DNA from: a virus
Virus record (IMG/VR): IMGVR_UViG_3300045988_116487
Reading direction: 5' to 3' (one strand)
Length of the DNA: 18,759 nucleotides
Positions 917-18,759 of this stretch are shown in pieces. The position numbers and the translations under genes are program-made. The stretch's first letter is position 1. Each line of letters starts with the position of its first letter. The notes beneath the pieces were generated by a model. The model did no database searches. It was given only the letters and a program-made list of their open reading frames with translations, and had not been told where the DNA came from.

Positions 917-936
917 TCTACAACCGGAGGTGTCTC

Positions 937-1888: not shown

Positions 1889-1909
1889 AACGAGATTGGG
1901 GGCAACATC

Positions 1910-3208: not shown

Positions 3209-3221
3209 CCGCCCGTTTTTT
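3188..3221 (+). terminator. Putative rho-independent terminator after the HNH gene
   Basis: GC-rich stem cgggcg(c)g / ccgcccg with one bulge and a 13-nt loop, followed by TTTTTT (3216-3221). It overlaps the stop codon at 3206-3208. Confidence 0.45.
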
Positions 3222-3376
3222 AAGCCGCAATGCACCACCGATACCCCGCGCCCACCGTTTTCTTATCCCCACAAACCAAATAAAAAAGCCCGAAAACAGG
3301 GACGGAACCCACGAGTTCGGACTGATTCGTTAGCCAATTAGGGAATCTACAACAATTTTGGTTTGGAGGCAACAAC

Positions 3377-3688
3377 ATGGGTGAGTTCCATGGACTCGAC
3401 GGCATGGAGGACGCCGGAATCGTCAAGGGGCCGCAGGAAAAAGCGACCGAGAAGTTCATCAACAGGTTCAGGGAAGGCAAGGCGGACAACGCCATGGCCG
3501 ATTTCCTGTATTCGAGCATGCTGAGCATCGCGCGCAACATCGACGCGCAGAACAACCGTGGCCGCGAGATAAGCCGCAACATGACCTCCCTGCTCGGCTA
3601 CATCCAACAGCTCGAAACCATCTACCCGTCCACACCTTCCCAGACTGACGACAGGCTGGAGGAACTCATGGCGGCGATGGCGAGATGA
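3377..3688 (+). CDS. Putative terminase small subunit (103 aa)
   Basis: GGAGG at 3365-3369 and ATG at 3377. It is a small acidic/helical protein immediately upstream of TerL and translationally coupled to it (ATGA). The call rests on position and size, not on a motif. Confidence 0.65.
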   Translation: MGEFHGLDGMEDAGIVKGPQEKATEKFINRFREGKADNAMADFLYSSMLSIARNIDAQNNRGREISRNMTSLLGYIQQLETIYPSTPSQTDDRLEELMAAMAR

Positions 3689-5151: not shown

Positions 5152-5167
5152 AACGTGGCCGACGTGT

Positions 5168-5203
5168 CCGCTTATGGCCGCTATGGCCGCTTATGGCCGC
5201 TAT
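5168..5203. repeat. Short tandem repeat CCGCT(T)ATGG x3.5 in the terL-portal gap
   Basis: Units are ccgcttatgg, ccgctatgg, ccgcttatgg and ccgctat, followed by a T5 run. Seen directly in the sequence. Confidence 0.8.
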
Positions 5204-5222
5204 TTTTTGGCGTGGCGCTGCC

Positions 5223-6365
5223 ATGCCGCGCATCATGTCCGGCATGAGCATACGAGAGATGATGGCGAACATGTGGGGCGCGGTGAAGCGTTCCGCCAAT
5301 CGCGTGTCAAGCGTGGCGACCGCGCCGTTCCGCCGTCCGGCCGGGCGTGACCCGTTGAACATGTCGGTCGTGTTCCGAGGCGTGCAGATATTGCAGACCG
5401 CAGTCAGCGGCTTGCCCGTGCGCCAGTTGCGGCATGGCATGGCCGTGGAACCCGCGCGGATCGTGGAACGCCCGGACCCCGACACGTGGCGGGCGGACTT
5501 CATCAGCGAAACCGTCATGGGCTTGGCGTTGAACGGCAACGCGTTCTGGCTGAGGTTGAAGGGCGTGGACGGCTCAACCATCGGCTTGCGGAATCTGCCG
5601 CCAGCGTTGGTGAGCGTTTCCGACGCTCGCGGCGACATCGCCAACCCCGACAAGCGCTATTGGTACATGGGGCGCGAATACACGTCAAACGACATCATTC
5701 ATCTCAGATTCTTGAAGGTGCCGGGACGGTTGCGCGGCATGGGGCCCATCGAGGCGGCGCGCGAGGAGATCGAGGGAGCCATCGACGCGCGCGATTACAA
5801 ATCAAGGTATTTTTCCGAGGGCACGCATCCCACGGGCATCATCAGCACCGCGAAGCCGTTGAACGACGAAGTGGCCGAGAAGGTCAAGGAAAGTTTCAAG
5901 CGCAACGTCGATGACGTGAAGGTGCTCACCGGCGACCTGAAATACACCCAGCTGGCGCTGAGTCCCAAGGACATGCAGTTTCTGGAGACGCAGCAGTTCG
6001 ACACCACGCAGATAGCCCGCCTGTTGGGCATCCCCGCTTCGCTCATGCTCGCGGCGGTGGAAGGCTCGAACCTCACCTACAGCAATATCGAACAGGAATG
6101 GATACAGTTCGCGGACTTCACTCTTGAAGCCTACGCGCAGCCCATCGAACTCGCGTTGGGTGAGGTGCTGCCGCGCGGCACCAGCGTGGAACTCGACTGG
6201 GACAGCATGCGCCGAAGCGACACGAAGACCAAGGCCGAAACCTACCAGATTCTCATAGCGTGCAACGTGCTCACCGTAGATGAGGCGCGCGCCATGGAAG
6301 GCAGGCCACCACTACCCGCCGCACCAACCCCGCAACCATCGAACGACTTGGAGGAAACCGAATGA
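5223..6365 (+). CDS. Portal protein, HK97-type (about 380 aa; start ambiguous)
   Basis: Portal-typical motifs are present (NGNAFWLRL, FLETQQFDTTQIARLLGIPASLM). In-frame start candidates are 5193, 5223 and 5244, and none has a strong SD. The stop overlaps the next gene (ATGA at 6362). Confidence 0.9.
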   Translation: MPRIMSGMSIREMMANMWGAVKRSANRVSSVATAPFRRPAGRDPLNMSVVFRGVQILQTAVSGLPVRQLRHGMAVEPARIVERPDPDTWRADFISETVMGLALNGNAFWLRLKGVDGSTIGLRNLPPALVSVSDARGDIANPDKRYWYMGREYTSNDIIHLRFLKVPGRLRGMGPIEAAREEIEGAIDARDYKSRYFSEGTHPTGIISTAKPLNDEVAEKVKESFKRNVDDVKVLTGDLKYTQLALSPKDMQFLETQQFDTTQIARLLGIPASLMLAAVEGSNLTYSNIEQEWIQFADFTLEAYAQPIELALGEVLPRGTSVELDWDSMRRSDTKTKAETYQILIACNVLTVDEARAMEGRPPLPAAPTPQPSNDLEETE

Positions 6366-7933
6366 ACGAACGCAAGGAAATCGCCTACCGCGGCCTGAAA
6401 CTCCGCAAAGCATCAGATGGTGACGGGCGCAGCATCGAGGGCGTGGCCGTCCCGTTCGGTGACATCTACAACGACCCGTGGGACGGGGCGGAAACGTTCG
6501 ACCGTGACACCGTTTTCGAGAACGCCGACACGGCCAAGCTCTGCTACCAGCACGCCGAACTGATCGGCGCGATCACTTCGGCAGAGAACCGCGACGACGG
6601 GCTTCACATCGCCGCACGAATCGCTGACACCCAGCTTGGGCGCGATGCGGTGGCATTGATGGACGAAGGCGCGTTGGACTCGCTCAGCGTCGGATTCGTC
6701 CCGTTGGAGGACGAACGCGACGAAAACAACGTGACCCACCGCCGCCGCGTGCGCCTCCTGGAAGTGAGTTTGGTGAGCTGGCCCGCATACCAGAACGCCA
6801 AGGTGGAGAACCACCGCAACCTCAATACCGAGAACAGCCAGGAAAGGAACCACATGGAAAACGAAACCATCGAAAAGGTGCGCGCGGAACAGGCCGAACA
6901 GGCCGACGTGCTGCGCAGCATCCAGGCGAGCCTAGCCACCATGAACAACCATGGCAGCTCGAATCCCGCCGCATCCTACCGCAGCTACGGGCATCTGCTC
7001 AAGCAGCTCGCCAAGGGCGACGAACAGGCGCGCAACGACTACGAGCAGATCAGCAAGCGCGACTACACGGGCGGCGTGCTCGCCAACAGCGACCCGCAGC
7101 CGGTATGGATCAGCAACACGCTTCGCATCCTCGAACAGCGCCGCCGCATCACCAACCTCGTGTCACACGCCGCGCTGCCGTCCGAAGGCGAGACGCTGAG
7201 CTATCCCATCGTCACCGAGGACACCACCACCGTAAGCAAGCAGGCCAAGGAAGGCGACTACCTCCCCTATGGCGAGATCAAGATCGGGGCACGAACCGCG
7301 ACCATCGAAACCTACGGCGGCTACACGTCCCTGAGCCGCCAGGCCATCGAACGCGCCAGCGTGCCCTACTTGGACAAAACCCTTGAGGCGTTGGTCAAGG
7401 CGTACGCGCGCAACACCGAAGCCGCCACCCGCATCGCCCTCTACGGTGCCATCGGTGACGTGTCCGCCTCGGACAAAATCGACGCGGGCAAGGCATTGAC
7501 GGCGATGACCCCGAACGACTGGCTCGACATCATCATCGACGCGCGCCTTGAGGTTGAAGACCGCAACACATCATTGGACTATCTCGGCGTTTCCGGCGAC
7601 GTGTTCAAGGCCATCGCCCACCTGAGCGACGACGGCGACCGTTTCATGGACATCAGCGGCGGCGGCATCGACCGGCTCGGCAGCATCGACACGACCGACA
7701 TCACCGGTTCACTGCTTCGCGTGCCAGTGGTGCTCATGCCCGGCGCGGCCGCAGGAACCGCCGCGTTCCTCGACAAGGGAGCCGTGACCGTGTGGGAGAA
7801 CGGCAACAGCCCGTTCCAGCTCCAGGACGACAACGTACTCAACCTCACCAAAGACTTCAGCGTGTACGGCTACGCCGCGTTCGGCGTGACCTTGCCCGAA
7901 GGCATACTGCCCATCAAGTTCGCCAACGCCTGA
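6362..7933 (+). CDS. Prohead protease (S78/HK97-type) fused in frame to HK97-fold major capsid protein (523 aa)
   Basis: The N-terminal ~160 aa carry HK97-protease hallmarks (EGVAVPFG, CYQHAELIG, LDSLSVGF, LLEVSLVSWPAY). The remainder begins with a coiled-coil delta-like region (ETIEKVRAEQAEQADVLRS) and continues as a capsid-like sequence (ATIETYGGYTSLSRQAIERAS). There is no stop between the two parts. An internal SD-like gaaagga plus ATG lies at 6854. Confidence 0.9.
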   Translation: MNERKEIAYRGLKLRKASDGDGRSIEGVAVPFGDIYNDPWDGAETFDRDTVFENADTAKLCYQHAELIGAITSAENRDDGLHIAARIADTQLGRDAVALMDEGALDSLSVGFVPLEDERDENNVTHRRRVRLLEVSLVSWPAYQNAKVENHRNLNTENSQERNHMENETIEKVRAEQAEQADVLRSIQASLATMNNHGSSNPAASYRSYGHLLKQLAKGDEQARNDYEQISKRDYTGGVLANSDPQPVWISNTLRILEQRRRITNLVSHAALPSEGETLSYPIVTEDTTTVSKQAKEGDYLPYGEIKIGARTATIETYGGYTSLSRQAIERASVPYLDKTLEALVKAYARNTEAATRIALYGAIGDVSASDKIDAGKALTAMTPNDWLDIIIDARLEVEDRNTSLDYLGVSGDVFKAIAHLSDDGDRFMDISGGGIDRLGSIDTTDITGSLLRVPVVLMPGAAAGTAAFLDKGAVTVWENGNSPFQLQDDNVLNLTKDFSVYGYAAFGVTLPEGILPIKFANA

Positions 7934-7950
7934 CAGAAAGGAACCCGACC

Positions 7951-8190
7951 ATGGAATGGAAGACCAAACTACCCAACATCCCCGAAGACACGTATGGCCC
8001 CGCGTTCGAGCCGACCATCATCGCCGCGATCAATGAACTCCGCGCAGCCATCGGCGGCACGACGGCACCGGAGGCCACCACCGTTGACACGCTCGGCGGC
8101 GCGACCGACATCGGCAAGAACATTCTCAAGGCGCGTGACGCGGCGGCGGTGCGCACCCTGCTGAACGTGGCCGAGAAACCGGCGGCCTGA
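7951..8190 (+). CDS. Small head/neck-associated protein (79 aa), function unknown
   Basis: ATG 7951 with gaaagga upstream, inside tracked ORF 7792-8190. The position is directly after the capsid gene. Confidence 0.7.
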   Translation: MEWKTKLPNIPEDTYGPAFEPTIIAAINELRAAIGGTTAPEATTVDTLGGATDIGKNILKARDAAAVRTLLNVAEKPAA

Positions 8191-8513
8191 TGGCGGACGA
8201 CCCACTTCTGAATGAACTCGCAAGGCAGGCCGGAACGCTCGACACCGACGACCGTCCGGCCTTGGCCGCGAGGCTCCGCGCGGCACGCGCCTACCTCTCC
8301 CCGCACGTGGATGGCTACGGCATCCCGAAGGACGTGGTGGACGACTGCACGCTGTCGGTGGCTTTGGACTTGTGGCAGGCCAAGGACGCGAGAAACGGCA
8401 TCGTGGGAATCACGGACGGCGTGGAACCGTTCAGAATCCCCACCGACCCGTTGCGCACCGCTTGGCCGAAGCTCAGGGCGGCGGGCTTGCCCGCAGGATT
8501 GGGCATCGCATGA
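8190..8513 (+). CDS. Head-tail adaptor/connector candidate (107 aa)
   Basis: ATG 8190 overlaps the upstream TGA. Size, position and an acidic helical N-terminus resemble gp6-like head-tail connectors. The assignment is positional. Confidence 0.65.
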   Translation: MADDPLLNELARQAGTLDTDDRPALAARLRAARAYLSPHVDGYGIPKDVVDDCTLSVALDLWQAKDARNGIVGITDGVEPFRIPTDPLRTAWPKLRAAGLPAGLGIA

Positions 8514-8875
8514 GCCGAGTGGACGAACTCACCGAACAGCTCACGGAACGCATCACCGAAGCCGGGCACGGCCTGATCCTCCAAGTCACCACAGACCCGT
8601 CACTGGTCAAACCATCGCCGGGCAAGGTCAGCTTGGTCATCATGCCGCCTGACATCGCTTGGGACGGCTGGGAACTGGAACCAAACGTGACGTTCAAGAT
8701 TCTCGCGGTGGCGGGAACAGCGAACACGAACAAGCGCGGCTACGACCTGATCCTAGAAGCCATGGACATCATGCACCAGGCGGACGTGAACATGGCCACG
8801 GCCACTCCAGTCGGCTTCAACCTCGCGGGCGCGGGAACGCTCGCCGCATACGAAATCACACTCAACCCCATGTAA
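8510..8875 (+). CDS. Neck / tail-terminator-like protein (121 aa)
   Basis: ATG 8510 in an ATGA overlap with the previous gene, inside tracked ORF 8372-8875. The assignment is positional. Confidence 0.65.
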   Translation: MSRVDELTEQLTERITEAGHGLILQVTTDPSLVKPSPGKVSLVIMPPDIAWDGWELEPNVTFKILAVAGTANTNKRGYDLILEAMDIMHQADVNMATATPVGFNLAGAGTLAAYEITLNPM

Positions 8876-8891
8876 TCGAAAGGACACAATC

Positions 8892-9323
8892 ATGGCGGCA
8901 ATCAGAACATTGGGACCGGGCAAGCTCACCATCACCGACACGGGTAAGGGGCGCGACTTCAGCGCGCAGGTCACCAAGGTGCAATTGGCGGCGTCGAACA
9001 ACACCGACGACCCTATCAATTTCCTCGACGGCTCTCAGGACACCAGCACAAGCACCGATTGGACGCTTGAAGGCACCATCGTGGACGACTTCGACGCCGA
9101 CAACCTCAGCGCGTGGTGTTTCGACCACGCTGGCGAGCAGATGCCGTTCGAGTGGGTGCCGAACGCCAAGGGCAAGATCAAGTGGACGGGCAACGTGAAT
9201 GTGAGCGCCGTGAGCATCGGTGGCGACGTGAAAAGCAAGAACACCAACGATTTCAGTTTCCCCGTCACCGACCTCCGCCACGATGCCTACAGCGGAACCA
9301 TCACCGCGCAAGAAGGAAACTAG
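8892..9323 (+). CDS. Putative major tail (tube) protein (143 aa)
   Basis: Upstream RBS aaagga. The N-terminal LGPGKLTITDTGKGRDFSAQVTKVQL pattern and a beta-rich composition resemble small siphovirus tube proteins. No other tube candidate lies before the chaperone genes. Confidence 0.6.
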   Translation: MAAIRTLGPGKLTITDTGKGRDFSAQVTKVQLAASNNTDDPINFLDGSQDTSTSTDWTLEGTIVDDFDADNLSAWCFDHAGEQMPFEWVPNAKGKIKWTGNVNVSAVSIGGDVKSKNTNDFSFPVTDLRHDAYSGTITAQEGN

Positions 9324-9324
9324 C

Positions 9325-9708
9325 ATGGCCGCGACAGCCGCCTACGTGGTAGGCCAAAAACGGTTCGTGTCCACCATGCGCAAGGCGGGCGCGGACATGA
9401 AGGAACTCAAGGAAGTCAACCGGCAGGCCGCGAACATCGCATTGCCAGCGGTGCGCAATCTCGCGCCGCGCGGCAAGAACGGCAGGTTGGCTTCATCAAT
9501 CCGTGTCGGGGCGACACAGAAGGCCGGTGTCATCCGCGCGGGAAGCAAAAGCGTGCCCTATGCGGGCGTCATCAACTACGGGTGGCCAGCCCGGCGCATC
9601 AAGCCGCGCCTGTTCGTCAACAACGGCGTGGCCTCGACGGAAGGCGCGTGGCAGCGCGTCTACAGGCAATTCATCGATAAGACACTCAACGAAGTAAAGG
9701 GAGCCTAG
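9325..9708 (+). CDS. HK97 gp10-family neck/tail-completion protein (127 aa)
   Basis: ALPAVRNLAPRGKNGRLASSIRVG...VPYAGVINYGWP matches the gp10-family pattern (aP.dtG.Lr.Si ... Ya..vEfG). ATG 9325 lies 2 nt after the previous stop. Confidence 0.7.
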   Translation: MAATAAYVVGQKRFVSTMRKAGADMKELKEVNRQAANIALPAVRNLAPRGKNGRLASSIRVGATQKAGVIRAGSKSVPYAGVINYGWPARRIKPRLFVNNGVASTEGAWQRVYRQFIDKTLNEVKGA

Positions 9709-9711
9709 ATC

Positions 9712-9978
9712 ATGCAGATCGTGAAAGTCACCTACGCGGACGGCCGCACCGAGGAAACGCGACTCACGCCGCGCGCCCTGTGCCAGGCCGAGGAACACGC
9801 CCAGATCAACAAATGGGCGGCGGGCGACGCCAGCCGAATCCGCCAGTCCTACTATCTCGCGTTCATCGCCATGCGCAACGCCGGTCACACCACGCTCGGC
9901 TTCGACGAGTGGATGGACACCGTGGACGACATCGCGCTCGAACAGAAAGACCCGGAACCAGCAAACCCTACGCTCTGA
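9712..9978 (+). CDS. Tail assembly chaperone, G-like (88 aa)
   Basis: Small acidic protein directly upstream of the tape measure. It contains GFDEWMDTVDDI, typical of tail chaperones. An overlapping -1 frame is open through to 10145. Confidence 0.8.
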   Translation: MQIVKVTYADGRTEETRLTPRALCQAEEHAQINKWAAGDASRIRQSYYLAFIAMRNAGHTTLGFDEWMDTVDDIALEQKDPEPANPTL

Positions 9979-10145
9979 CCGCGTGGCCTGACGACTCGCT
10001 AGGCCGTCTCTCTTGCCTGCTGTCCCGCTATTTCGGCGGCACCCCGTGGGAGTGGAGGGAGAAGGCAAGCGAATTTGATTGGGCGACGGCGGTGGAGATA
10101 TTGCAGGACGAAACCGAACGAATGGAGGAAAACGATGGCTCATAG
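9712..10145 (+). CDS. Tail assembly chaperone frameshift product, GT-like: join(9712..9969, 9969..10145), about 144 aa
   Basis: The -1 frame (tracked ORF 9780-10145) is open across the end of G and stops 11 nt into the tape-measure gene. A_AAC_CCT at 9963-9969 is the only X_XXY_YYZ heptamer near the G stop. Confidence 0.6.
9963..9969 (+). promoter_or_regulatory. Candidate -1 programmed ribosomal frameshift heptamer A_AAC_CCT
   Basis: In the G frame the codons are gca AAC CCT. Slipping back one nt gives AAA CCC and then continues in the open -1 frame (YALTAWPDDS...). Confidence 0.5.
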
Positions 10146-12072
10146 CGCGATCATGTCGGTGCGCATCACCGGCAACAGTGACGACGCGGTGAAGGCGTTC
10201 CAGAAGGCCACCAGCAAGGCGGCGGCGTTCGGCAGCTTCATGGGCGGTGCCGCGTTGAAGGGCGTGACCGAGTTGTGGGACAAGCTCAAGGACTTCGGCG
10301 GCGCTGTCATCGACATGAGCGACAGCACCGACAAGTTCGTGCAGACCATGAACTTCGCGGGCATCGACACGTCGAACGTGGAGAAGGCGTCACAGGCGGC
10401 GCGCGACTACGCCGACCGCACCGTGTACGACCTCTCAACGATACAGAACACCACCGCCCAGTTGGCCGCGAACGGCATCAGCGACTACACCGGTTTGACC
10501 GAGGCGGCGGGCAACCTGAACGCCGTGGCGGGCGGCAACGCCGACACGTTCAAAAGCGTGGCGATGATGCTCACCCAGACGGCTGGCGCGGGCAAGCTCA
10601 CGACCGAGAACTGGAACCAGTTGGCCGACGCCATCCCCGGCGCTTCGGGCAAACTCCAGGAAGCCATGCTCAAGAACGGCGCGTACACGGGCAATTTCCG
10701 CGACGCGATGGAAAAGGGCGAGATATCGGCGGACGAGTTCAACAAGGCCATCATGGACTTGGGCATGAGCGACGTCGCCAAGGAAGCCGCATCGAGCACG
10801 AAGACCATGGAAGGCGCGTTGGGCAATCTGGAAGCCGCCATAACAGGCGGACTCACAGACGCGTTCGACCTGTTCAAACCCACGGTGACCGGAGCGCTCA
10901 CCGAAGCCGCCGACAGCGTGAGCGATTTCGCCGCGAAAGCCACCGGAGGATTGAAGCAGTTCACCGACTCCATAAGCAAGACTGGAGCGTTCCAATCCCT
11001 CGCGGACACCGTGAAGGCCGTGGGCGGCGCGCTCGGCTCGATGGGCCAGGCGTTCTCCGACATCGCCACCACGATAGCGCCCGGACTGCAAGGATTGTCC
11101 GACGCGGGAAGCATCGGCACGCAGTTGGGCGACGCGTTCAACGGCGCGGCCGGTATCATCCAGGCGGTGGCCGACAAGCTCACCCAGTTCGGTGATTGGG
11201 TCAGCGCGAACGCCGAACCCATCGCGGGCGCGCTGGTGGCCATCGGCGGCGGACTCGCCGCGTTCAAGGTGGCCAGCGCCATCAGCGCCGTGGTGGCCGC
11301 GTTGCAGGGCTTCAGCATCGCCGCGACCGCCGCCGAAGTGGCGCAATGGGCGTTGAACGTCGCCATGAACGCGAACCCAATCATGATCGTGGTCACCGCC
11401 ATAGGCGCGTTGGTGGCCGCGCTGGCGTGGTTCTTCACCCAAACCGAAACCGGGCGCAACATCTGGAGCCAGTTCACCGCGTTCATGGGCGGATGCGTGA
11501 ACAACATAATCGGTTTCTTCCAAGCGTTGCCCGGCAGAATCGGCGCGTTCTTCCAGAACGCGGCACAAGGCGCGCAGAACGCATGGAACGGCGTGGTCGG
11601 CTTCTTCTCCAGCATCCCAGGCCGTATCCTCTCCGCATTGGGCAACGTGGGCGGCCTGCTCGTGAACGCCGGCAAAAGCATCATAGACGGTTTCCTCCGG
11701 GGATTGAAAAGCGCATGGGACGGCGTGACCGGTTTCGTGGGAGGCATAGCCGACTGGATCACCTCGCACAAGGGGCCGATCAGCTACGACCGTCGCCTGC
11801 TGATCCCGCACGGCAAAGCCATCATGGCGGGCTTCGCCCAGGGACTTGAAACAGGTTTCCAAGGCAAGGTGAGGACCGCCATCGCATCCGTCAACACCAG
11901 CCTAGCGTCAACGAGCATGTCCGCCATGCTCAACGGAACACGGGCGGGCTTGGCGGGCACGACCGTGGGCAACAACTACGAGGGGCACATCGACGGCACC
12001 GTGGCGGACCCGGACGGCACCGCCAAGGCCATCCGCAAACTCCTAGCCGATTACGAGGGTGTGCGACGCTGA
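10135..12072 (+). CDS. Tape measure protein (645 aa)
   Basis: Long Ala/Gly-rich helical protein with a central hydrophobic block (IAGALVAIGGGLAAFKVASAISAVVAAL ... IMIVVTAIGALVAALAWFF). ATG 10135 is preceded by ggagga. It follows the chaperone pair. Confidence 0.9.
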   Translation: MAHSAIMSVRITGNSDDAVKAFQKATSKAAAFGSFMGGAALKGVTELWDKLKDFGGAVIDMSDSTDKFVQTMNFAGIDTSNVEKASQAARDYADRTVYDLSTIQNTTAQLAANGISDYTGLTEAAGNLNAVAGGNADTFKSVAMMLTQTAGAGKLTTENWNQLADAIPGASGKLQEAMLKNGAYTGNFRDAMEKGEISADEFNKAIMDLGMSDVAKEAASSTKTMEGALGNLEAAITGGLTDAFDLFKPTVTGALTEAADSVSDFAAKATGGLKQFTDSISKTGAFQSLADTVKAVGGALGSMGQAFSDIATTIAPGLQGLSDAGSIGTQLGDAFNGAAGIIQAVADKLTQFGDWVSANAEPIAGALVAIGGGLAAFKVASAISAVVAALQGFSIAATAAEVAQWALNVAMNANPIMIVVTAIGALVAALAWFFTQTETGRNIWSQFTAFMGGCVNNIIGFFQALPGRIGAFFQNAAQGAQNAWNGVVGFFSSIPGRILSALGNVGGLLVNAGKSIIDGFLRGLKSAWDGVTGFVGGIADWITSHKGPISYDRRLLIPHGKAIMAGFAQGLETGFQGKVRTAIASVNTSLASTSMSAMLNGTRAGLAGTTVGNNYEGHIDGTVADPDGTAKAIRKLLADYEGVRR

Positions 12073-13601
12073 TGGCACAACAACCATTCATGTACTTGGA
12101 CACCGGCGACGGGTGGAAGCCGGTCAACGACCATCGGCAGGACATCGCCGCGTTGGATGATTTCACGATTTCGTGGGGAGCCGACGACCCCGTGAGCCAA
12201 CCCGATCCGGCGGTGCTCACGTTCGACCTGATCGACCGGGCTGGCGACTTTGCCGGCAAGGCCGTCACATTGTCGGGCTCGCGCGCGCTGGTGCAACTCA
12301 GCGCGGAACCCACGTGGGACATGCTGCCCGACAGCATGGGCGCATGGGAGCGGATACGCGGCACCATCGCCCAACTGTACCAGCAATACGTGCCCACGGC
12401 TCCAGAAGCTCCGGGCGAGAACGTGCCCACCCTGTTCATCGGCACGATAGGCCATGGCGGCACCGTCACCGACTTGGGCAACAGGTGGCGCATCCATTTG
12501 ACCGCCACAAGCCTGATGGTCATGTGGGAACGCCTGCAATCACAAGGCCCCACCAGCGGTGAGGCGAAGCACGCGGGACGCCATTGGGTCGGCACCCCGG
12601 CCGCGCGGTTGGCGGAACTCAACAAGCGCGCCCAACAGGCGGGCGCTCCCATAGCCGAACCCCAATCGTTGCAATTGCCCCCGGCAGTCGCCACGTACAA
12701 GACCGACGATTACCCGTCGCAACTTGACTTGCTGTCGCGCATGTACGCGCACGTCATGCCCGCGCCCGCATGGTACGAGCATTACCAGGGTGAAACCATC
12801 ACCCTCCGCCCGCTGTCGTTGGCCGGATCGGTGCAGGTGCATGTGGGCGTGGATGGCATGCCGTACGTGCTCGTGGACGGCCAACACCGTGACACGTTGC
12901 CAGCGAATCTCGTGGCCGGCGATTTGGAACTGTCCATCATGGAGCCGGTCACGCAGGCCGTGGCCAAAACCAAACGCGCGAAGAACAACGACGGCGTGGT
13001 GGAATACGACGACATGGAAACCGTCTACACGGACATGAACCGTTTGCCCACCCGGCTCACGGACACGCAGAAAAGCGTCACGGCCGATTCGGACGCCGTG
13101 GCCGGCGACGACTCGGGCGGTTTGCACACGGGCGGCACGTTCGCCCCGTCCGACGCGCAACGGCAGGCGGCGGCATCGTGGATCGTCACGCACGACACCC
13201 GGCTGCGCAACGAGTCCATTAAGTTCATTGGAACGAACCTAGACCCGGTGTCGTTCCCGCACCTGTTCCGTCCCGAACCCTCCGGTCCCGTGCTTATCAC
13301 CGGCATACGTTTGAGCACGTTGAACGGCATGGACGGGCGACCGGCGTTCTCCGGCGCGTTCACGACCATCGGCGGGCGTATCACGTTCACCCACAAGCGG
13401 GGCATGACCCATGAAGCGACCATGTACCCGCTCGACTCCACAGCGAACACCGGCATGCGCTGGCAGGACTTCACGGACTGGCCGGCCACATTCGCGCAAT
13501 GCGTGTTCACGTTCGCGGAATTGACAGGGTTCACAGTTTTCGACAAACCGACAAGCACGACCGGCATCGACCGGCCGAACTGGGAAGGAAACCAAGAATG
13601 A
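12072..13601 (+). CDS. Minor tail protein (509 aa), distal-tail/baseplate candidate
   Basis: ATG 12072 overlaps the tape-measure TGA. It is the only large ORF between the tape measure and the fibre. The function is positional. Confidence 0.8.
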   Translation: MAQQPFMYLDTGDGWKPVNDHRQDIAALDDFTISWGADDPVSQPDPAVLTFDLIDRAGDFAGKAVTLSGSRALVQLSAEPTWDMLPDSMGAWERIRGTIAQLYQQYVPTAPEAPGENVPTLFIGTIGHGGTVTDLGNRWRIHLTATSLMVMWERLQSQGPTSGEAKHAGRHWVGTPAARLAELNKRAQQAGAPIAEPQSLQLPPAVATYKTDDYPSQLDLLSRMYAHVMPAPAWYEHYQGETITLRPLSLAGSVQVHVGVDGMPYVLVDGQHRDTLPANLVAGDLELSIMEPVTQAVAKTKRAKNNDGVVEYDDMETVYTDMNRLPTRLTDTQKSVTADSDAVAGDDSGGLHTGGTFAPSDAQRQAAASWIVTHDTRLRNESIKFIGTNLDPVSFPHLFRPEPSGPVLITGIRLSTLNGMDGRPAFSGAFTTIGGRITFTHKRGMTHEATMYPLDSTANTGMRWQDFTDWPATFAQCVFTFAELTGFTVFDKPTSTTGIDRPNWEGNQE

Positions 13602-14191
13602 AAACCACACCCACCTACGGCATCAGCTACATAGAAGGCAGCGACCTAGTATCGAACGCGGCCGCTGGTTTCAAAAAGGCGGCGGAAACCACGGAAGCCG
13701 CGTTGAAACTGGTGGACCAGCGTTCGACCATCGAGGGCGTGAAGCCCGCCATAGCGGGCACGCTCGCCACGCTCGCCACGATGAGAGGCGCCACCGGCCA
13801 AACCGGCTACGTGACCTCAGACGGCAATAACAACGGGCCTTACTGTTGGAACGGTTCGGCATGGGTGAAATACGCGCAGAACACGCAAATCAACTCATTG
13901 CAATCGCAGATCGCCGCGATAACACAGGGTTACGAGTCCGGCACCGTCACCCTCCAGACAACACAGTTGGGTGCGGCCTCGGTCAGGTTCGCCAAGCACA
14001 AGACCAAACCCAAGGCCGTGCTCGTAACCCGCGTCAGAAATAACCAAGACGGCGACGACAGAGCCAGAATCTTCAACCCGATAGTGTGGGATATCACCGC
14101 CACCGAGTTCCAAGTGCGTTTCTGGCGTCTGGACACGCACAACTGGGCCGAGTCCTGGCCGCTCACGTTCTCTTACCTAGCCATCTGGTGA
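13598..14191 (+). CDS. Tail fibre / receptor-binding protein, expressed variant A (197 aa)
   Basis: ATG 13598 in an ATGA overlap with the upstream gene. The N-terminal TYGISYIEGSD motif and GPYCWNGSAWVKY are common in actinophage fibre proteins. A short coiled coil (NTQINSLQSQIAAIT) follows, then an 84-aa C-terminal domain that starts just after inverted repeat IR-L. Confidence 0.85.
   Translation: MKTTPTYGISYIEGSDLVSNAAAGFKKAAETTEAALKLVDQRSTIEGVKPAIAGTLATLATMRGATGQTGYVTSDGNNNGPYCWNGSAWVKYAQNTQINSLQSQIAAITQGYESGTVTLQTTQLGAASVRFAKHKTKPKAVLVTRVRNNQDGDDRARIFNPIVWDITATEFQVRFWRLDTHNWAESWPLTFSYLAIW
13923..13942. repeat. IR-L: left inverted repeat / candidate recombination site inside the fibre gene
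   Basis: cacagggttacgagtccggc. The reverse complement of 14439-14458 is cacagggttatgagttcggc, giving 18/20 identity with the first 10 nt perfect. It encodes QGYESG in the fibre frame. Confidence 0.8.
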
Positions 14192-14192
14192 C

Positions 14193-14438
14193 CTACTTCC
14201 AGAGGGCGAGCCAGTAGAACTTCGTCGGCTGATTGGCGGCCCAGGCGTTGCTATCGTTCCTGCGGAACCTGACTTGAGCGCCATTATTGGTCAGCTCGTA
14301 CACCATTGGGCTCAGGAATCGGTCGAGATCATCGGACGGCGTTCTCGCCAGCATCACCAGCATTGCCTGAGGAGACGTGGAGTGTCGGACCCAATTGACG
14401 GTGGCCACACCGTTTTGATCGGTGCTTGCGTCGACCAC
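14193..14438 (-). CDS. Silent alternative fibre C-terminal cassette B (no ATG or RBS of its own; in-frame homology extends to 14456)
   Basis: The minus-strand frame reads SQGYEFGVVDASTDQNGVATVNWVRHSTSPQAMLVMLARTPSDDLDRFLSPMVYELTNNGAQVRFRRNDSNAWAANQPTKFYWLALWK. It aligns along its length with variant A (QGYESGTVTLQTTQLGAASVRFAKHKTKPKAVLVTRV...FQVRFWRLDTHNWAESWPLTFSYLAIW). Upstream in frame there is only a stop (14493-14495) and no ATG. The tracked M is a GTG inside the homology. Confidence 0.75.
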   Translation of the reverse strand: MVDASTDQNGVATVNWVRHSTSPQAMLVMLARTPSDDLDRFLSPMVYELTNNGAQVRFRRNDSNAWAANQPTKFYWLALWK

Positions 14439-14458
14439 GCCGAACTCATAACCCTGTG
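14439..14458. repeat. IR-R: right inverted repeat / candidate recombination site
   Basis: gccgaactcataaccctgtg on the plus strand, the inverted partner of 13923-13942. It lies 24 nt upstream of the next gene's ATG (14483) and leaves that gene's RBS outside the segment. Confidence 0.8.
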
Positions 14459-14482
14459 ATCCCGTCTCATTTGAAAGGAAAC

Positions 14483-14752
14483 ATGGTGGATTTCATCACC
14501 GCGATAGCCGGCGCGTGCGGCGTCGCGTTCGGCGCTGCCGTGCAGGCCGTTGTGGCGTGGCTCAACAACAAAGCCACCCACGAGGAAAACAGCGCCGACA
14601 TGCTCCACGAAGCGCAAACAGAACTCAAGGACACCATGGCCGACATGAATCTGTTGTGGGAGCATAACCGCGCGCTCATCGACCACATATACAGGGGCGC
14701 GCCACCACCCCCGCCGAACCCGCCCGAAGGCTTGTTCAAACACGACAACTAA
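14483..14752 (+). CDS. Single-pass membrane protein of the lysis cassette (89 aa; holin-like or lysis accessory)
   Basis: ATG 14483 with gaaaggaa upstream. It has an N-terminal TM helix (FITAIAGACGVAFGAAVQAVVAWL), then a coiled coil and a Pro-rich tail. It lies immediately upstream of the endolysin. Confidence 0.7.
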   Translation: MVDFITAIAGACGVAFGAAVQAVVAWLNNKATHEENSADMLHEAQTELKDTMADMNLLWEHNRALIDHIYRGAPPPPPNPPEGLFKHDN

Positions 14753-14764
14753 AAGGACACAACA

Positions 14765-15649
14765 ATGGCATTGAACATCAAACAAGTGCCCAGCCCGAAC
14801 CATTACAACGGGCGCAACGGGCATCGGGTGACTCACATCACCCTGCACATCATGGTCGGCCGTCTCGCCGGCACCGACGCCGTTTTCCAGCGGCCGAGTT
14901 CGCAGGCTTCGGCCCATTACGGCATCGGCGGCACGGGTGAGATTCACCAGTACGTGAGCGAAGCCAACGGCTCATATTCCGACGCGAATTTTTCGAGCAA
15001 CAACAGCACCATCAGCATCGAGCATGAAGGCGGTATGGCCGGTGTGCCCATGACCGACGCATGCGTGGAGGCGTCCGCACAGTTGTGCGCGGACATTAGC
15101 CGCCGTTACGGGCTCGGCAAGCTCTGGCACGACGGGTTGAACGGCAACGTGTGGCTGCACCGCGAGATACCCGGCACGGACCATTACGGATGCCCCGACC
15201 GAGCACCGAACGGTCTGCCCGTCCAACGGGTCATCGACCGCGCCAATCAATTGTTAACCAATCCATCTAGTCAAGGAGAAACAGAAATGAGCACAGCACT
15301 GGTTATCTGGGACGACGACAGCGGCGTGGGCTACTACTGGAGCCCCGAAACCGGCCGCGTCGGCCTATCACACCCGGACCAGGTCGTGGTGTTGAAGAAC
15401 GCCGGCGTGAAAGAGATTCACAGCAGCAAGAAAGCCCCGTGGGCGGCGCGCGCCGATCAAATCAGCCAATTCGTGCAGGCCAAGACGACCGCGTACGAGA
15501 AGGCTCAGACGGCCGCGTTGGAGGCCATGGCCAAGAGCATCGGCGCGGACCCGAACACCATCGCCGACACCGTGCGCAAGGCCGTGGAAAGCAAGTTGGC
15601 CACGCTCGACATCCAGATCACCACCAAGGACAAGGGGACGGGCAAATGA
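14765..15649 (+). CDS. Endolysin: N-acetylmuramoyl-L-alanine amidase (Amidase_2/PGRP-type) plus C-terminal domain (294 aa)
   Basis: VTHITLHIMVG ... AHYGIG ... NNSTISIEHEG ... LHREIPGTDHYGCP is the Amidase_2 zinc-amidase pattern. The C-terminal 120 aa follow an AT-richer linker that contains a perfect internal AAGGAG (15273-15278) and an in-frame ATG at 15287. Confidence 0.9.
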   Translation: MALNIKQVPSPNHYNGRNGHRVTHITLHIMVGRLAGTDAVFQRPSSQASAHYGIGGTGEIHQYVSEANGSYSDANFSSNNSTISIEHEGGMAGVPMTDACVEASAQLCADISRRYGLGKLWHDGLNGNVWLHREIPGTDHYGCPDRAPNGLPVQRVIDRANQLLTNPSSQGETEMSTALVIWDDDSGVGYYWSPETGRVGLSHPDQVVVLKNAGVKEIHSSKKAPWAARADQISQFVQAKTTAYEKAQTAALEAMAKSIGADPNTIADTVRKAVESKLATLDIQITTKDKGTGK

Positions 15650-15906
15650 GCGACCCCGTGAATACTCCGGGAGTGGCCGACCACAAGGCCACCGGCAGCA
15701 TGGACGCGGAGAAGGGCTACACGCCCGTGTTCAACAACACCGTGCGCACCATCGCGTATGTGGCCGGTCTCATCGCCGTAGCGGTCGGTTTCGGTTTCAC
15801 CCAGTTCGGTGACCCGACCGTGGGCGATTACATCACCACCGTGGGCGGTCTTATCGCTGGTGGTTTCGGCGTGGCATACAATCCGCTGCGCATGGCCGGA
15901 AAGTAG
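15646..15906 (+). CDS. Holin, two transmembrane segments (86 aa)
   Basis: ATG 15646 in an ATGA overlap with the endolysin stop. It has two hydrophobic helices (TIAYVAGLIAVAVGFGF, ITTVGGLIAGGFGVAY). The position after the lysin is typical of actinophages. Confidence 0.8.
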   Translation: MSDPVNTPGVADHKATGSMDAEKGYTPVFNNTVRTIAYVAGLIAVAVGFGFTQFGDPTVGDYITTVGGLIAGGFGVAYNPLRMAGK

Positions 15907-15913
15907 CCCAATC

Positions 15914-16399
15914 ATGACGATGGTGCACATACGATTACGCGCCCCGACCAACGGCGGCACCCGTGCCGGCGTCGGCATGGTCGTGTTCCAACCATCCGCC
16001 CGTCATACCGACGACGCAAGTGTGGTGTTGCCCGACACGTTCACCGTGGTGCTGGACGAAGAAGGCGAAGCCACCGTGGACATCCAGCCCACCGGTCCCG
16101 ACTGGTGTTGGAAAACCGACGAGCAAGTGCCCTACGGGTCTATTCGCTGGTTCACCGTGCCCGACACGGCCGGCACGCTGGAATACGCGGAACTTACGGA
16201 CGTGGACCCGCGCACGTTCAAACCGGGACGCAACCTCGCCGCATGGCAGGCCGTCACCGGCGACATCAAAACCATGATCGACAGCATGCCCCGGTTCCTC
16301 ACCGGGCACGGCTCCCCGACCATCGACGGCAAGCCGGGTGACATCTACCTCGACTTGGACACCATGGACCTCTACACCAACAACCAAGAAAGGAACTAA
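15914..16399 (+). CDS. Minor tail / fibre-like protein encoded downstream of the lysis cassette (161 aa)
   Basis: The pattern VVFQP...[23 protein letters not shown]...[26 protein letters not shown] and the C-terminal [16 protein letters not shown] resemble conserved actinophage minor tail proteins, as I recall them. The start is uncertain (15914 or 15920) and there is no clear SD. Confidence 0.65.
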
Positions 16400-16401
16400 C
16401 C

Positions 16402-16665
16402 ATGGCATTCGGAAAAATCGGCAGTCTTCGCGGCGAACAGGGACCACAGGGCCCACGCGGACCCGAGGGACCGCAGGGGCCGCAGGGCGACAGGGGCGAT
16501 CCGGGCCCCGCCGGAGCCAGGGGCGAAACCGGCGCGCCCGGCCCCGCTGGTCCGGCGGGTCCGGGCATCGTGTTCACCCAGGGTGCTCCCACCGGCAGCG
16601 GCGTGGCCGGCGCGATGTACGTGGACAAAACCACGTTCGATGTGTACGTGTGGAGAGCCGACTAA
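16402..16665 (+). CDS. Collagen-like (Gly-X-Y) fibre protein (87 aa)
   Basis: RBS gaaagga, ATG 16402. A run of about 18 Gly-X-Y triplets ([45 protein letters not shown]) is followed by [15 protein letters not shown]. Confidence 0.8.
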
Positions 16666-16778
16666 TGGCCTACGACCGCATCGGCAATCTGAAAGGCAGC
16701 ACGCCCGATGACGCCAAGCTCCGCGCGTTGATTCTCGCGGTGTTGAAGACCGTCACATGGGCGCAACTGTCAGGCTGA
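16665..16778 (+). CDS. 37-aa ORF resembling only the N-terminal start of a fibre protein
   Basis: TAATG overlap with the collagen-like gene. [16 protein letters not shown] parallels the [14 protein letters not shown] start of the preceding gene. Its 3' end overlaps the convergent recombinase gene by 9 nt. Confidence 0.4.
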   Translation: MAYDRIGNLKGSTPDDAKLRALILAVLKTVTWAQLSG

Positions 16779-17597
16779 GAGCAGCACGGCGGCCATGCCC
16801 GCGCGCAGCCGTTCGTCTGGCATTGCCACGTACACCTGTGTCGTTTCCACGCTCGCGTGACCGAGCAGCTTGGACACCAGCAGCAGGTCGTGCGTGGCTT
16901 GCCACGTGGCGGTAGCATACCGGTGGCGCAGGCTGTGCGCGGTCCATCCGTCACCGAGCAGGCTCGACAGTCTGTCGCCTATGTAGCTTTCCTCGACGTG
17001 CCCGCCGAACCGGCCGGGGAACACGTACCCATCGCACGCGCTTATCAGGTCGGCCAAGTCGTCGGGTAACGGCACTATGCGCTGTTTGTCGCCCTTGCCA
17101 TTGACCACCAGCGACCGGCCAACGAGATCGTCAACCACGTCGCCGCTGGACACCCGGCCTATCTCGCCACGCCTTAAACCGCACTCGGCACCGAGCCGCA
17201 GCATGATTCTCTCGGACTCGCTGGCACGCCCCAACGCGGCCAATATCACCTTGTCCGGGCACGGGCGCGGATGAGGTCTAGGACGTTTGGTTTTAGGCAG
17301 TTCCATGCTTGGGTCATCATTGCGCCGGCCGGTCTGCCGCATCCATGCGAAGAAGCTGGACACCGTGTTGCGGTACGCTTTGCGTGTTTCCGGTTTCCAG
17401 GATTGCGAGGCGAACCACTGTGTCATCATCTCGCAGGTGACTTCATACGGCGAGACACCCAGACATACGGCCGTGTATGTCATTTTTCGCCGTCTGGTCA
17501 ATAGTGTTTGCTCGCTGCGGCCACCGGCCTTCAGTGCCGCGAGCCATCCGGTCAATTCCTCACGCCATAACGGGGGCGCTACCCATTTTTTCGTCAT
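16770..17597 (-). CDS. Tyrosine recombinase 1 (275 aa, short Xer/Rci-like; candidate fibre invertase)
   Basis: Catalytic signature present: ECGLRRGEI (Arg I), GKGDKQRIVP (Lys), HSLRHRYAT (His-x-x-Arg), LLGHASVETTQVYVAM (His, Tyr). A SAM-like N-domain is present and no long arm-binding domain is apparent. It is a paralog of the 17790-18614 product. Confidence 0.9.
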   Translation of the reverse strand: MTKKWVAPPLWREELTGWLAALKAGGRSEQTLLTRRRKMTYTAVCLGVSPYEVTCEMMTQWFASQSWKPETRKAYRNTVSSFFAWMRQTGRRNDDPSMELPKTKRPRPHPRPCPDKVILAALGRASESERIMLRLGAECGLRRGEIGRVSSGDVVDDLVGRSLVVNGKGDKQRIVPLPDDLADLISACDGYVFPGRFGGHVEESYIGDRLSSLLGDGWTAHSLRHRYATATWQATHDLLLVSKLLGHASVETTQVYVAMPDERLRAGMAAVLLSA

Positions 17598-17613
17598 GAC
17601 ACATCATGTGTCA
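17597..17613. promoter_or_regulatory. Perfect palindrome TGACACA-TCA-TGTGTCA overlapping the start codon of recombinase 1
   Basis: Arms of 7 bp with a 3-bp centre, seen directly. Base 17597 is the first base of the minus-strand ATG. Confidence 0.4.
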
Positions 17614-17657
17614 CGCCGCTAAACTTAGAATCAGCCGGGGCATGGATTTGGACCTTG

Positions 17658-17705
17658 GACCTCTGGGATACCCAGAGGTCACAGGTTCAAATCCTGTCCC
17701 CGCTA
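17658..17705 (+). other. attP core region: 10-3-10 palindrome plus the 3' part of a tRNA-Met-like gene (not a functional tRNA)
   Basis: 17671-17705 (cccagaggtcacaggttcaaatcctgtccccgcta) reads as the anticodon-stem 3' strand, variable loop, T-arm (ACAGG-TTCAAAT-CCTGT), acceptor 3' strand and discriminator of a Met-type tRNA, as I recall those sequences. The left arm gacctctggg (17658-17667) is a perfect inverted copy of cccagaggtc (17671-17680). The would-be anticodon loop is only 3 nt (ata). Confidence 0.7.
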
Positions 17706-17718
17706 CGAATCGCGGGAG

Positions 17719-17752
17719 GCCGTCACGAATTTATCGTGACGGCTTTTTGTTT
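17719..17752 (+). terminator. Rho-independent terminator downstream of the tRNA fragment
   Basis: Stem gccgtcacga / tcgtgacggc (10 bp perfect), loop attta, then tttttgttt. After integration it would terminate the reconstituted host tRNA. Confidence 0.8.
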
Positions 17753-17789
17753 CCTAGCAGCATTATTGCCGATTGGACGATGATGTCCC

Positions 17790-18614
17790 GTGAAAAAACA
17801 ACATCCAGCCCCACTCTGGGCAGAATCTATCAACATGTGGCTCGACTCACTGAAGGCGGCGGGCTACTCCACCAACACGCTCAACACGCGGCGCTGCCAG
17901 ATGAGCGCACTGTCGCGGGCGCTTGAGGGCGATCCTAAGGACGTGGAAGGCGACGACCTGCTCGCCCACTTCGCCGCGAAGGACTGGAAGCCCGAGACAC
18001 GCAAGGGCGCGAAGAACGCCTGCGTCAGCTATTTCCGATGGCTCAAAGCGTCCGGCCGCAGCGAGGCCGATCCGAGCGAGTTCCTACCCACCGTCAAGCG
18101 TCCCGAACCGCATCCCCGGCCATGCCCGGACGTGGTCATACTCACCGCACTGCGCAAGGCCACGGACAGCGAACGGCTCATGCTGCGTCTCGGCGCGGAA
18201 TGCGGTTTGAGACGCTTCGAGATAGCGAAGGTGCACAGCCGCGACGTCATGCGCGACCTCGTGGGCTGGAGCCTCGTCGTCGTAGGCAAGGGCGACAAGC
18301 AACGCATCGTGCCGATCGGCGACGACCTCGCCCTGCTGATCCGCTCCGCCCACGGCTATCTGTTCCCCGGCCGGTGGAGCGGCCACGCCGAATCATCCTA
18401 CGTCGGCCGACACCTGAGCGACCTCTTGGGCGACGGATGGACGGCCCACAGCCTGCGCCACAGGTACGCGACCACGACCTACGCCGCCACACGAGACCTG
18501 CTGCTCGTCTCCAAGCTCTTGGGGCACGCCTCGGTCGAGACCACGCAACGGTACATCGCCATGCCCGACGACCGGCTGCGCGCCGCAGTGGAAGCCACGC
18601 GCCTCGCCGCATGA
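17790..18614 (+). CDS. Tyrosine recombinase 2 (274 aa; candidate integrase)
   Basis: GTG start supported by alignment with the paralog (KKQHPAPLW vs TKKWVAPPLW). Same catalytic signature: ECGLRRFEI, GKGDKQRIVP, HSLRHRYAT, LLGHASVETTQRYIAM. It lies just downstream of the tRNA fragment in the same orientation, the usual tRNA-int arrangement. Confidence 0.9.
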   Translation: MKKQHPAPLWAESINMWLDSLKAAGYSTNTLNTRRCQMSALSRALEGDPKDVEGDDLLAHFAAKDWKPETRKGAKNACVSYFRWLKASGRSEADPSEFLPTVKRPEPHPRPCPDVVILTALRKATDSERLMLRLGAECGLRRFEIAKVHSRDVMRDLVGWSLVVVGKGDKQRIVPIGDDLALLIRSAHGYLFPGRWSGHAESSYVGRHLSDLLGDGWTAHSLRHRYATTTYAATRDLLLVSKLLGHASVETTQRYIAMPDDRLRAAVEATRLAA

Positions 18615-18649
18615 TGTTGCATTGATGTCATATTGATGTATGATAGATG
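18611..18649 (+). promoter_or_regulatory. AT-rich early promoter candidate (TTGCAT-16 nt-TATGAT) embedded in four (T/A)GATGT repeats at exact 11-bp spacing
   Basis: TGATGT occurs at 18611, 18622 and 18633, and AGATGT at 18644. The -35-like TTGCAT is at 18616-18621 and the -10-like TATGAT at 18638-18643. AGGAGG and the ATG of the 39-aa ORF follow directly. Confidence 0.45.
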
Positions 18650-18660
18650 TTATTAGGAGG

Positions 18661-18759
18661 AATGTGCGGCACGCGACCGTTCACCTTGCGCGACTTGACC
18701 CGCATTGCTGATTTCTTCGATGTGAGCGTCGATTTCCTTCTTGGTCGTTCTGATTATGC
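18661..18759. repeat. Terminal direct repeat, copy 2 (identical to 1-99)
   Basis: Base-for-base identical to 1-99. It contains the first 98 nt of the same 39-aa ORF annotated at 2-121. Confidence 0.9.

Follow-up and report, generated by a model that had tools for sequence, protein, structure and literature searches.

Two integrases of different Bifidobacterium prophages at one tRNA-Met in a circular phage contig: probable capture of a neighbour's integrase in place of the repressor

The virus record IMGVR_UViG_3300045988_116487 of IMG/VR comprises 18,759 nucleotides (hereafter the window, coordinates 1–18,759), in which two recombinase genes, rec1 and rec2, are transcribed away from each other on either side of a short gap holding part of a tRNA gene. 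The window represents, in circular form, a derivative of a small bifidophage that integrates at tRNA-Met and is exemplified by Bb423phi2 and 689b-1. We conclude that the two enzymes are the integrases of different Bifidobacterium prophages at one tRNA-Met, the neighbour's integrase having probably been captured by aberrant excision and having replaced the repressor. Rec2 is a hitch-hiker in this genome. Relatives of the window are labelled L001–L041, and B denotes the larger neighbouring prophage that donated Rec2.

16770–17597, minus strand: Rec1, the phage's own armless integrase of the Brujita/BPs type, 275 amino acids, ATG start, ending -LLSA (exact-protein look-up, match to PDB entry 5VFZ, end gene of a prophage of about 18 kb).
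17790–18614, plus strand: Rec2, integrase of the neighbouring prophage B, 274 amino acids, GTG start, ending -RLAA (look-up of the 259-amino-acid form).
17670–18660, plus strand: foreign block R, 991 nucleotides, comprising the tRNA-Met 3' half, a terminator, Rec2 and 46 nucleotides upstream of brnT (17671–18660 matches the B loci).
18615–18660, plus strand: upstream region of brnT of prophage B, with repeats ATTGATGT and the ribosome-binding site AGGAGG, now fused to truncated cro (matches L012 8916–8976 and L011 10883–10942, where the BrnT start codon follows).

Window positions 17671–18660 are identical at 990 of 990 nucleotides to loci that carry prophage B without the small phage (L033, L034, L036 and L039–L041), and likewise to L032, L035, L023, L025 and L027. 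The homology to the B loci starts at the 3' strand of the tRNA anticodon stem and ends just before the start codon of BrnT. Most gene callers start Rec2 at M16, and the exact look-ups rest on the resulting form of 259 amino acids, which was found in 39 index blocks; exact look-up of the 274 residues from the GTG start gave no match. In L033, L034 and L036–L041, an intact tRNA-Met beside metA immediately precedes Rec2, which is followed by brnT and a brnA-like gene; the genes beyond, on the opposite strand, encode a holin, a GH25 lysin, an RVT_1 reverse transcriptase and large tail proteins. These loci are the end of a different, larger prophage, B. The first-pass annotation had described the recombinases as paralogous; they are indeed homologous, with long blocks in common, but they are not duplicates made within one phage, given the identity of Rec2 and its flanks to the end of another prophage.

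The tRNA-Met locus is an integration hot spot. In L035, a contig of 282 kb, the small phage and B stand in tandem, reading phage genes, Rec1, palindrome, tRNA 3' half, Rec2, brnT and the rest of B. In L018 another small phage, whose integrase shares 82% identity with Rec1, stands head to head against Rec2–BrnT–BrnA. An unrelated element in L012 (188–7789), with a 406-amino-acid integrase, a Rep_OBD protein and a XamI-type restriction-modification pair, occupies the same tRNA-Met upstream of Rec2. These three loci indicate that a divergent pair arises whenever something integrates into the tRNA that precedes Rec2.

The remainder of the window belongs to a well-described phage type. Bb423phi2 and 689b-1 are Bifidobacterium breve prophages of about 18 kb that lie at tRNA-Met beside metA and show integration-dependent immunity (Mavrich et al. 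2018, PMC6109161), and the minus-strand arm of the gap in the window matches their published att (attachment site) core. Samples with Bifidobacterium contain this family extremely often: its large terminase subunit (window 3685–5151) is found, as an exact match, in 5,949 index blocks. The variant with two integrases is rare by comparison, its truncated cro product having been called on 15 contigs.

Rec1 is the native integrase of this small phage. It is the last prophage gene in all 24 large contigs read, with no second recombinase beside it; at this right end the int-side arm abuts a displaced tRNA 3' fragment, followed by host genes (a 635-amino-acid gene, glgE and ppa). The left prophage end reads metA, tRNA-Met, rep (97 or 113 amino acids) and cro in 10 of 10 large chromosomal contigs, and in each of the ten the tRNA 3' half is supplied by the phage (a T arm of the CATGG type and CCA). 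In viral contigs in attP form (L016, L017 and L020), a cro-like gene diverges from rep, which runs through a palindromic attP and is followed by int; this attP consists of the reverse complement of the functional tRNA 3' half, then TAT, then a pseudo-half in inverted orientation. The rep product of L016 has 142 amino acids, reads through the att core and ends in LILSLAA, and the prophage forms of 97 or 113 amino acids overlap the tRNA. In the native phage of Rec1, attP therefore lies inside the 3' end of rep, and integration removes the C-terminal tag of Rep; in the window rep is deleted. In related systems a single tagged Int carries out both integration and excision (PMC3694055).

Two further observations concern this native site. 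Its palindrome sets two tRNA-Met 3' halves face to face, with arms of 33–36 nucleotides and a spacer of 3 nucleotides (6 in L019), and the C-terminal tag of viral Rep is encoded across it (L016 1215–1300). The displaced host fragment in L001–L010 equals the pseudo-arm over 33 nucleotides, which suggests gene conversion between the arms or a crossover point other than the one placed below.

In the window, the site between the two integrase genes is composed of parts of both phages.

17598–17669, minus strand: int-proximal arm of the native attP, including the pseudo-copy 17635–17667 and a short palindrome over the Rec1 start codon (identical in the Rec1-only lysogens L001 and L010; matches L016, L017 and L020).
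17670–17680, plus strand: ACCCAGAGGTC, the sole stretch common to the native attP and the Rec2-borne tRNA (window compared with L016/L001 and with L033).
17671–17705, plus strand: tRNA-Met 3' half, comprising the 3' strand of the anticodon stem, variable loop, T arm and 3' strand of the acceptor (identical to the intact tRNA-Met of L011, L032 and L033).
17719–17749, plus strand: terminator-like hairpin and T-run downstream of the tRNA half (read from the sequence; same position after the intact tRNA in L032 and L033).

The gap measures 192 bp (17598–17789). That the genes diverge around a tRNA-fragment att site in some 190 bp had been seen in the first pass, and the tRNA-Met 3' half at 17671–17705 agrees with it. 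The gap is a near-palindrome (repeat I3) in which an inverted, slightly degenerate pseudo-copy (17635–17667) and the true 3' half (17671–17705) are separated by the spacer ATA. ARAGORN reported no tRNA in the window, and an Rfam search of the gap returned the tRNA model at 20 bits and otherwise sub-threshold microRNA-like hairpins, which reflect the palindrome. A promoter and terminator scan of the gap and of the Rec2–cro junction gave nothing decisive and left the hairpin at 17719–17749 unflagged. The hybrid att (17635–17705) has one arm from each phage, and each arm lies beside its own integrase gene. Because ACCCAGAGGTC is the only stretch that both parents have in common, the site-specific crossover would have to fall within it. 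The hybrid att remains usable, as the variant also occurs in integrated form at tRNA-Met, where Rec2 occupies the tRNA-proximal end.

The other end of the foreign block is of a different kind.

18660–18661, no strand: illegitimate junction from prophage-B DNA to phage cro codon 42, without microhomology (L012 compared with L016; identical in L023–L028, L031 and L032).
2–121, plus strand: truncated cro-like gene, 39 amino acids, equal to codons 42–80 of an 80-amino-acid XRE-type protein whose helix-turn-helix part is gone (full gene at L016 819–577).
1–99 and 18661–18759, no strand: direct terminal repeat with identical ends, marking a circular contig of 18,660 bp.

The first 99 nucleotides of the window equal its last 99 exactly, and the match fails at 100, so the window closes into a circle of 18,660 bp. 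The first-pass annotation had the recombinases flanking an att site, which stands, in a genome now seen to be circular and phage-like; the terminal repeat, the near-palindrome in the gap and the truncation of cro had escaped it. Window positions 1–697 match L016 697–1 at 96%. Compared with L016, the circle lacks cro codons 1–41, which encode the helix-turn-helix, the rep–cro intergenic region, all of rep and the functional att arm, a loss of about 560 bp, and the 991-nucleotide prophage-B block stands in their place. The junction at 18660|18661 is identical in at least nine contigs from several studies. The variant is about 430 bp larger than the wild type (18,660 bp vs 18,221–18,260 bp), a net gain that is plausibly still within packaging size. 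The genome has the hallmarks of a specialised transducing phage: a hybrid att is kept, neighbour DNA replaces DNA of the opposite end, one junction is illegitimate and the size is near that of the wild type.

The following route probably led to this structure. The small phage would integrate into a B lysogen, between the tRNA 5' half and B, and its distal end (Rec1 and the int-side att arm) would then abut the displaced tRNA 3' half, the terminator and Rec2, leaving the integrases head to head. Illegitimate recombination in the tandem lysogen would join a point 46 nucleotides past Rec2 to cro codon 42. The resulting circle would keep the hybrid att, carry 991 bp of B and lose about 560 bp of the immunity region. 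We infer three things: the order of these events, the reality of the circle as a molecule that replicates or is packaged, and the identity of the integrase active on the hybrid site. The sequence identities, both junctions and the tandem, integrated and circular configurations are seen directly in independent assemblies. The 134-kb contig L032 carries the integrated variant, reading metA, tRNA, Rec2, truncated cro, early genes and structural genes. The first pass had expected integration to put the recombinases at opposite prophage ends, and so it does: Rec2 is at the tRNA end in L032, with Rec1 at the far end by the displaced tRNA half, as in the L035 junction. L023, L025 and L027, from other samples and assemblers, follow the circle-type path of Rec1, palindrome, Rec2 and truncated cro. 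The tandem, integrated and circle-type forms are thus each present in other metagenomes.

The loss of the immunity region also changes what stands before the early genes. The early operon of the variant now lies behind Rec2 and the brnT upstream region and opens with the 39-amino-acid cro remnant on the BrnT ribosome-binding site, the native PR and PRep being gone. Control of this operon by the BrnA antitoxin of prophage B is conceivable. Prophage B itself (L033–L041, 11.4–20.8 kb) carries the BrnT/BrnA toxin-antitoxin pair beside its integrase and RVT_1 between its lysis and tail genes; this RVT_1 may be part of a diversity-generating retroelement. L011 holds just Rec2, BrnT, BrnA and a 189-amino-acid protein, with no phage.

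As proteins, the two recombinases have the size and position given in the first pass (open reading frame check), and all the shared blocks it quoted were found. A gapless BLASTP alignment gives 168 identical residues of 273 (62%, E = 3e-119). PF00589 is the sole Pfam match of both, at 66.7 and 56.5 bits against a cut-off of 27.1, which places both among the tyrosine recombinases. When they are aligned with each other, with relatives and with Brujita gp33 (PDB 5VFZ), the catalytic set is complete in Rec1 (R142, K168, H221-x-x-R224, H247 and Y256) and in Rec2 (R141, K167, H220, R223, H246 and Y255), in keeping with the intact R-K-HxxR-H-Y set reported earlier. The top PDB match of Rec1 is 5VFZ (E = 1e-28), which an alignment of gp33 identified as this armless integrase of Brujita; Rec1 is 31% identical to gp33. 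Among phage proteins it is closest to the small integrases of Cluster G mycobacteriophages and of Gordonia phages (44% identical). The description of both proteins as short and without a lambda-type arm-binding domain also stands, the Brujita integrase being the top solved structure (aligned residues 25–268 or 18–268), and on sequence grounds both belong to the Brujita-type armless integrase family. Integrases of this type are described as armless, directionless and promiscuous (Lunt and Hatfull 2016, as reported in PMC6109161). The C-terminal tails, -LLSA in Rec1 and -RLAA in Rec2, are conserved and ssrA-like in look, and they resemble degradation tags. On 538 contigs a protein identical to Rec1 carries the annotation of a Bifidobacterium integrase; one of these contigs is a genome of 2,411,276 bp with prophage coordinates that fit Bb423phi2. 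Members of the Rec2 cluster are annotated as integrases of B. longum and B. catenulatum, and about 2,170 Bifidobacterium integrases cover the same range of divergence as that between Rec1 and Rec2.

The window also carries a tail-fibre switch.

13598–14191, plus strand: tail-fibre-like gene, 197 amino acids, with its 3' part inside the invertible segment (gene calls in L035 and L001; after the tape-measure and minor tail protein genes).
13923–13942, no strand: left inversion site, CACAGGGTTACGAGTCCGGC, with crossover within CAGGGTTA (repeat I7; both orientations in relatives).
14015–14030, no strand: internal third copy of the inversion site, CGGGTTACGAGCACGGC on the minus strand (repeat I22; conserved, flips with the segment in L013–L016 and L021).
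14439–14458, no strand: right inversion site, GCCGAACTCATAACCCTGTG (repeat I7).

The left and right repeats are 496 nucleotides apart and both contain CAGGGTTA, the 8-bp inversion site described in PMC6109161 for the invertible fibre segment of about 500 bp in Bb423phi2 and 689b-1, "with no recombinase flanking the locus". Neither Pfam nor PHROG gave a match to the fibre-like protein. Either orientation is often seen in prophages that have Rec1 only. Between L001 and L004, from different samples, the flanking 3,298 and 7,125 nucleotides show 0 mismatches and the 516-nucleotide segment is the exact reverse complement; L005 and L007 likewise differ by an exact inversion. These exact flips in Rec1-only prophages indicate that inversion is recent and needs no Rec2 nearby. 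The third site is slightly degenerate and lies about 98 bp from one end of the segment, which may make the switch a small shufflon with three sites instead of a plain two-state inversion. At the start of each cassette, the inner part of the inversion repeat encodes a conserved motif, (Q/A)GYE(S/F/H)G.

Two other accounts keep both recombinases at work in one phage. Under one of them, proposed in the first pass, they are duplicated paralogues of which one integrates the phage and the other serves as dedicated invertase for the fibre switch, at a distance of 2.3 kb. In its favour, neither gene is damaged and each encodes a complete catalytic set, the published switch has no flanking recombinase (PMC6109161), and no other recombinase, and no serine recombinase, was found among the open reading frames of the window. 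We nevertheless regard this as most improbable: Rec2 with its flanks matches the end of another prophage at 100% identity, no Rec2 lies beside Rec1 in 24 of 24 large contigs or at 10 of 10 normal left ends, the switch flips without it (L001/L004) with both states common, and the 10 kb of prophage B next to Rec2 contain no such inversion sites and no strong inverted repeats. Between Rec2 and the nearest inversion site lie 3.3 kb. Rec1 does occur together with the switch, but its place is the att junction, at a distance of 2.3 kb; neither recombinase is a dedicated fibre invertase. The other account makes Rec1 and Rec2 a heteromeric pair like XerC/XerD, each binding one att half in the gap. It could draw on the hybrid att, with one arm per phage next to its own integrase gene, and on the Xer-like domain layout of both proteins, yet of an obligate pair there is no sign in the relatives, which have one integrase: the native attP (L016, L017 and L020) and all normal lysogens carry a single one, one Int integrates and excises in related systems (PMC3694055), and the pairing is a by-product of tandem integration (L018 and L035), found otherwise only in this variant. 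It, too, is very hard to credit.

More serious is the possibility that there is no free circle, and that a defective prophage is fixed between two 991-bp blocks (tRNA–R–variant–Rec1–att–R–BrnT–B) so that the circle is an assembly cycle. L032 (tRNA–R–truncated cro) and L035 (Rec1–att–R–BrnT) are its two expected chromosomal junctions, and the variant lacks rep, the cro helix-turn-helix and the early promoter region. However, L032 and L035 come from different samples, L023, L025 and L027 (different samples and assemblers) run unbroken through Rec1–att–R–truncated cro, the window closes at an arbitrary point and not at a repeat boundary, and all checked phage genes are intact and identical to the wild type. 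We consider this alternative unlikely, though by no means negligible; unbroken reading through the 991-nucleotide block together with closure at an arbitrary point leads us to think that a circular or concatemeric molecule exists. Several points do weigh against capture by aberrant excision as we propose it. The junction and the hybrid att were absent from scans of viral_contigs, genome_contigs and metagenome_contigs, their recurrence coming solely from gene-index look-ups. The circle could be a graph cycle through the 991-bp repeat if the variant adjoins B in the chromosome. The genome would have to be regulated without rep, the cro helix-turn-helix and the rep–cro promoters. Finally, B is seen at the tRNA end only, and Rec2 could belong to a small int–BrnTA island, as in L011, instead of B proper. 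A simple prophage upstream of a resident Rec2 island was also considered and dropped: the sequence after Rec2 is phage cro, and the window ends are the 99-nucleotide repeat.

Rec1 is the leading candidate for the enzyme that flips the fibre segment. Taken in reverse complement, the right-hand repeat GCCGAACTCATAACCCTGTG agrees with the tRNA-Met anticodon arm GCTGGGCTCATAACCCAGAG in 15 of 20 positions, and the crossover intervals deduced for integration and inversion overlap in this alignment. CTCATAACCC (14445–14454, in the right site) equals the anticodon loop and stem of the target tRNA-Met and is the sole 10-mer that the tRNA has in common with the remaining genome; chance alone would be expected to yield about four such matches somewhere in it, and only the location of this one is notable (~1e-3, post hoc). 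The switch-bearing phages found have near-identical integrases (93–99% in the fibre query), and phages with integrases 82% and 72% identical to Rec1 had no such switch. It is possible, though we would put it forward only tentatively and with some doubt, that Rec1 is also the tail-fibre invertase, one directionless and promiscuous recombinase serving integration, excision and phase variation at sites that mimic tRNA-Met. A Rin-like enzyme of a co-resident prophage or a host recombinase is also possible. A different likeness had been pointed out in the first pass, between the inversion repeat and the tRNA T arm; it is due to chance, as it uses the TCACAGG arm imported with Rec2, while native attP sites have TCCATGG or TCCAAGG with the same inversion sites.

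Elsewhere in the window, a single open reading frame of 523 amino acids (6362–7933) encodes the prohead protease (Peptidase_S78) fused to the major capsid protein (Phage_capsid_4), as in the gene calls of related loci. A 63-amino-acid HTH_17 protein (2257–2448), of an excisionase-like fold family, is encoded just upstream of a 279-amino-acid HNH/AAA_33 protein (2369–3208) that matches a small-terminase PHROG. Nothing was found to link the HTH_17 protein to excision, and it could act with the terminase instead of serving as a recombination directionality factor.

The result is ordinary phage mosaicism, a new instance of tRNA-hot-spot polylysogeny combined with capture of the specialised-transduction type. 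It removes the readings of Rec2 as a spare integrase turned invertase or as an Xer-like partner, and provides a natural case of tandem lysogeny of two related-integrase phages at one tRNA gene in which the neighbour's integrase was probably captured by an event of the aberrant-excision type. It is a real example of a phage with two att–int cassettes, a state through which, as Broussard and Hatfull postulated, genetic switches pass in their evolution (PMC3694055). The fibre-switch question in a very abundant infant-gut phage family now points to the phage's single integrase, and if Rec1 were the invertase, this would answer the point of Mavrich et al. (2018) that no recombinase flanks the switch. 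The genome has lost its whole immunity module and yet appears as a "complete circular" viral contig. Catalogues of viral genomes should take this as a warning that a circular, intact-looking contig need not be wild type.

Aberrant excision that takes flanking DNA, with one site-specific and one illegitimate junction, is the origin of the lambda gal and bio specialised transducing phages. As in these, one hybrid att is kept here, DNA flanking one end replaces phage DNA of the other, the junctions are one of each kind and the size is within packaging range; unlike in these, the cargo is the integrase of an adjacent prophage and not a host operon, immunity genes are lost, and aberrant excision itself is deduced from the product. 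With Bb423phi2 and 689b-1 (PMC6109161) the window has in common a size of about 18.2 kb, the tRNA-Met site beside metA, the att core, the fibre segment of about 500 bp at CAGGGTTA and the layout of integration-dependent immunity, with int at one end, rep at the other and the tag restored in the viral form; it differs in having no rep, no control region and half of cro missing, with a second integrase and the tRNA half of a foreign prophage instead. BPs, Brujita and Charlie (PMC3694055) likewise have small integrases with no arm-binding domain and a C-terminal tail of the degradation type, and in the native relatives of the window, as in those phages, attP lies inside rep, with rep and int co-oriented and cro divergent. 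In contrast to them, the phage lives in Bifidobacterium, and the rep half of the system is deleted in the window; the native attP, a long palindrome in which two tRNA 3' halves are joined, may be a further difference. The resemblance to XerC/XerD consists of a core-binding and a catalytic domain without an arm-binding domain, and of weak matches to XerD, XerA and XerH structures; Rec1 and Rec2, however, form no conserved pair, have no dif-like site, are phage-borne and are targeted to a tRNA. Rin is an armless, XerD-like shufflon tyrosine invertase of dnaJ2-integrated bifidophages, encoded directly beside its cassettes (PMC6109161), and was compared by its description. Its rix site TTCCCTAACCC is absent from the window, where neither Rec1 nor Rec2 adjoins the switch and both lie at att junctions. 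Both systems place an armless XerD-like tyrosine recombinase in a bifidophage with an invertible fibre or receptor-binding-protein segment, and the rix site and the inversion site described here have TAACCC in common.

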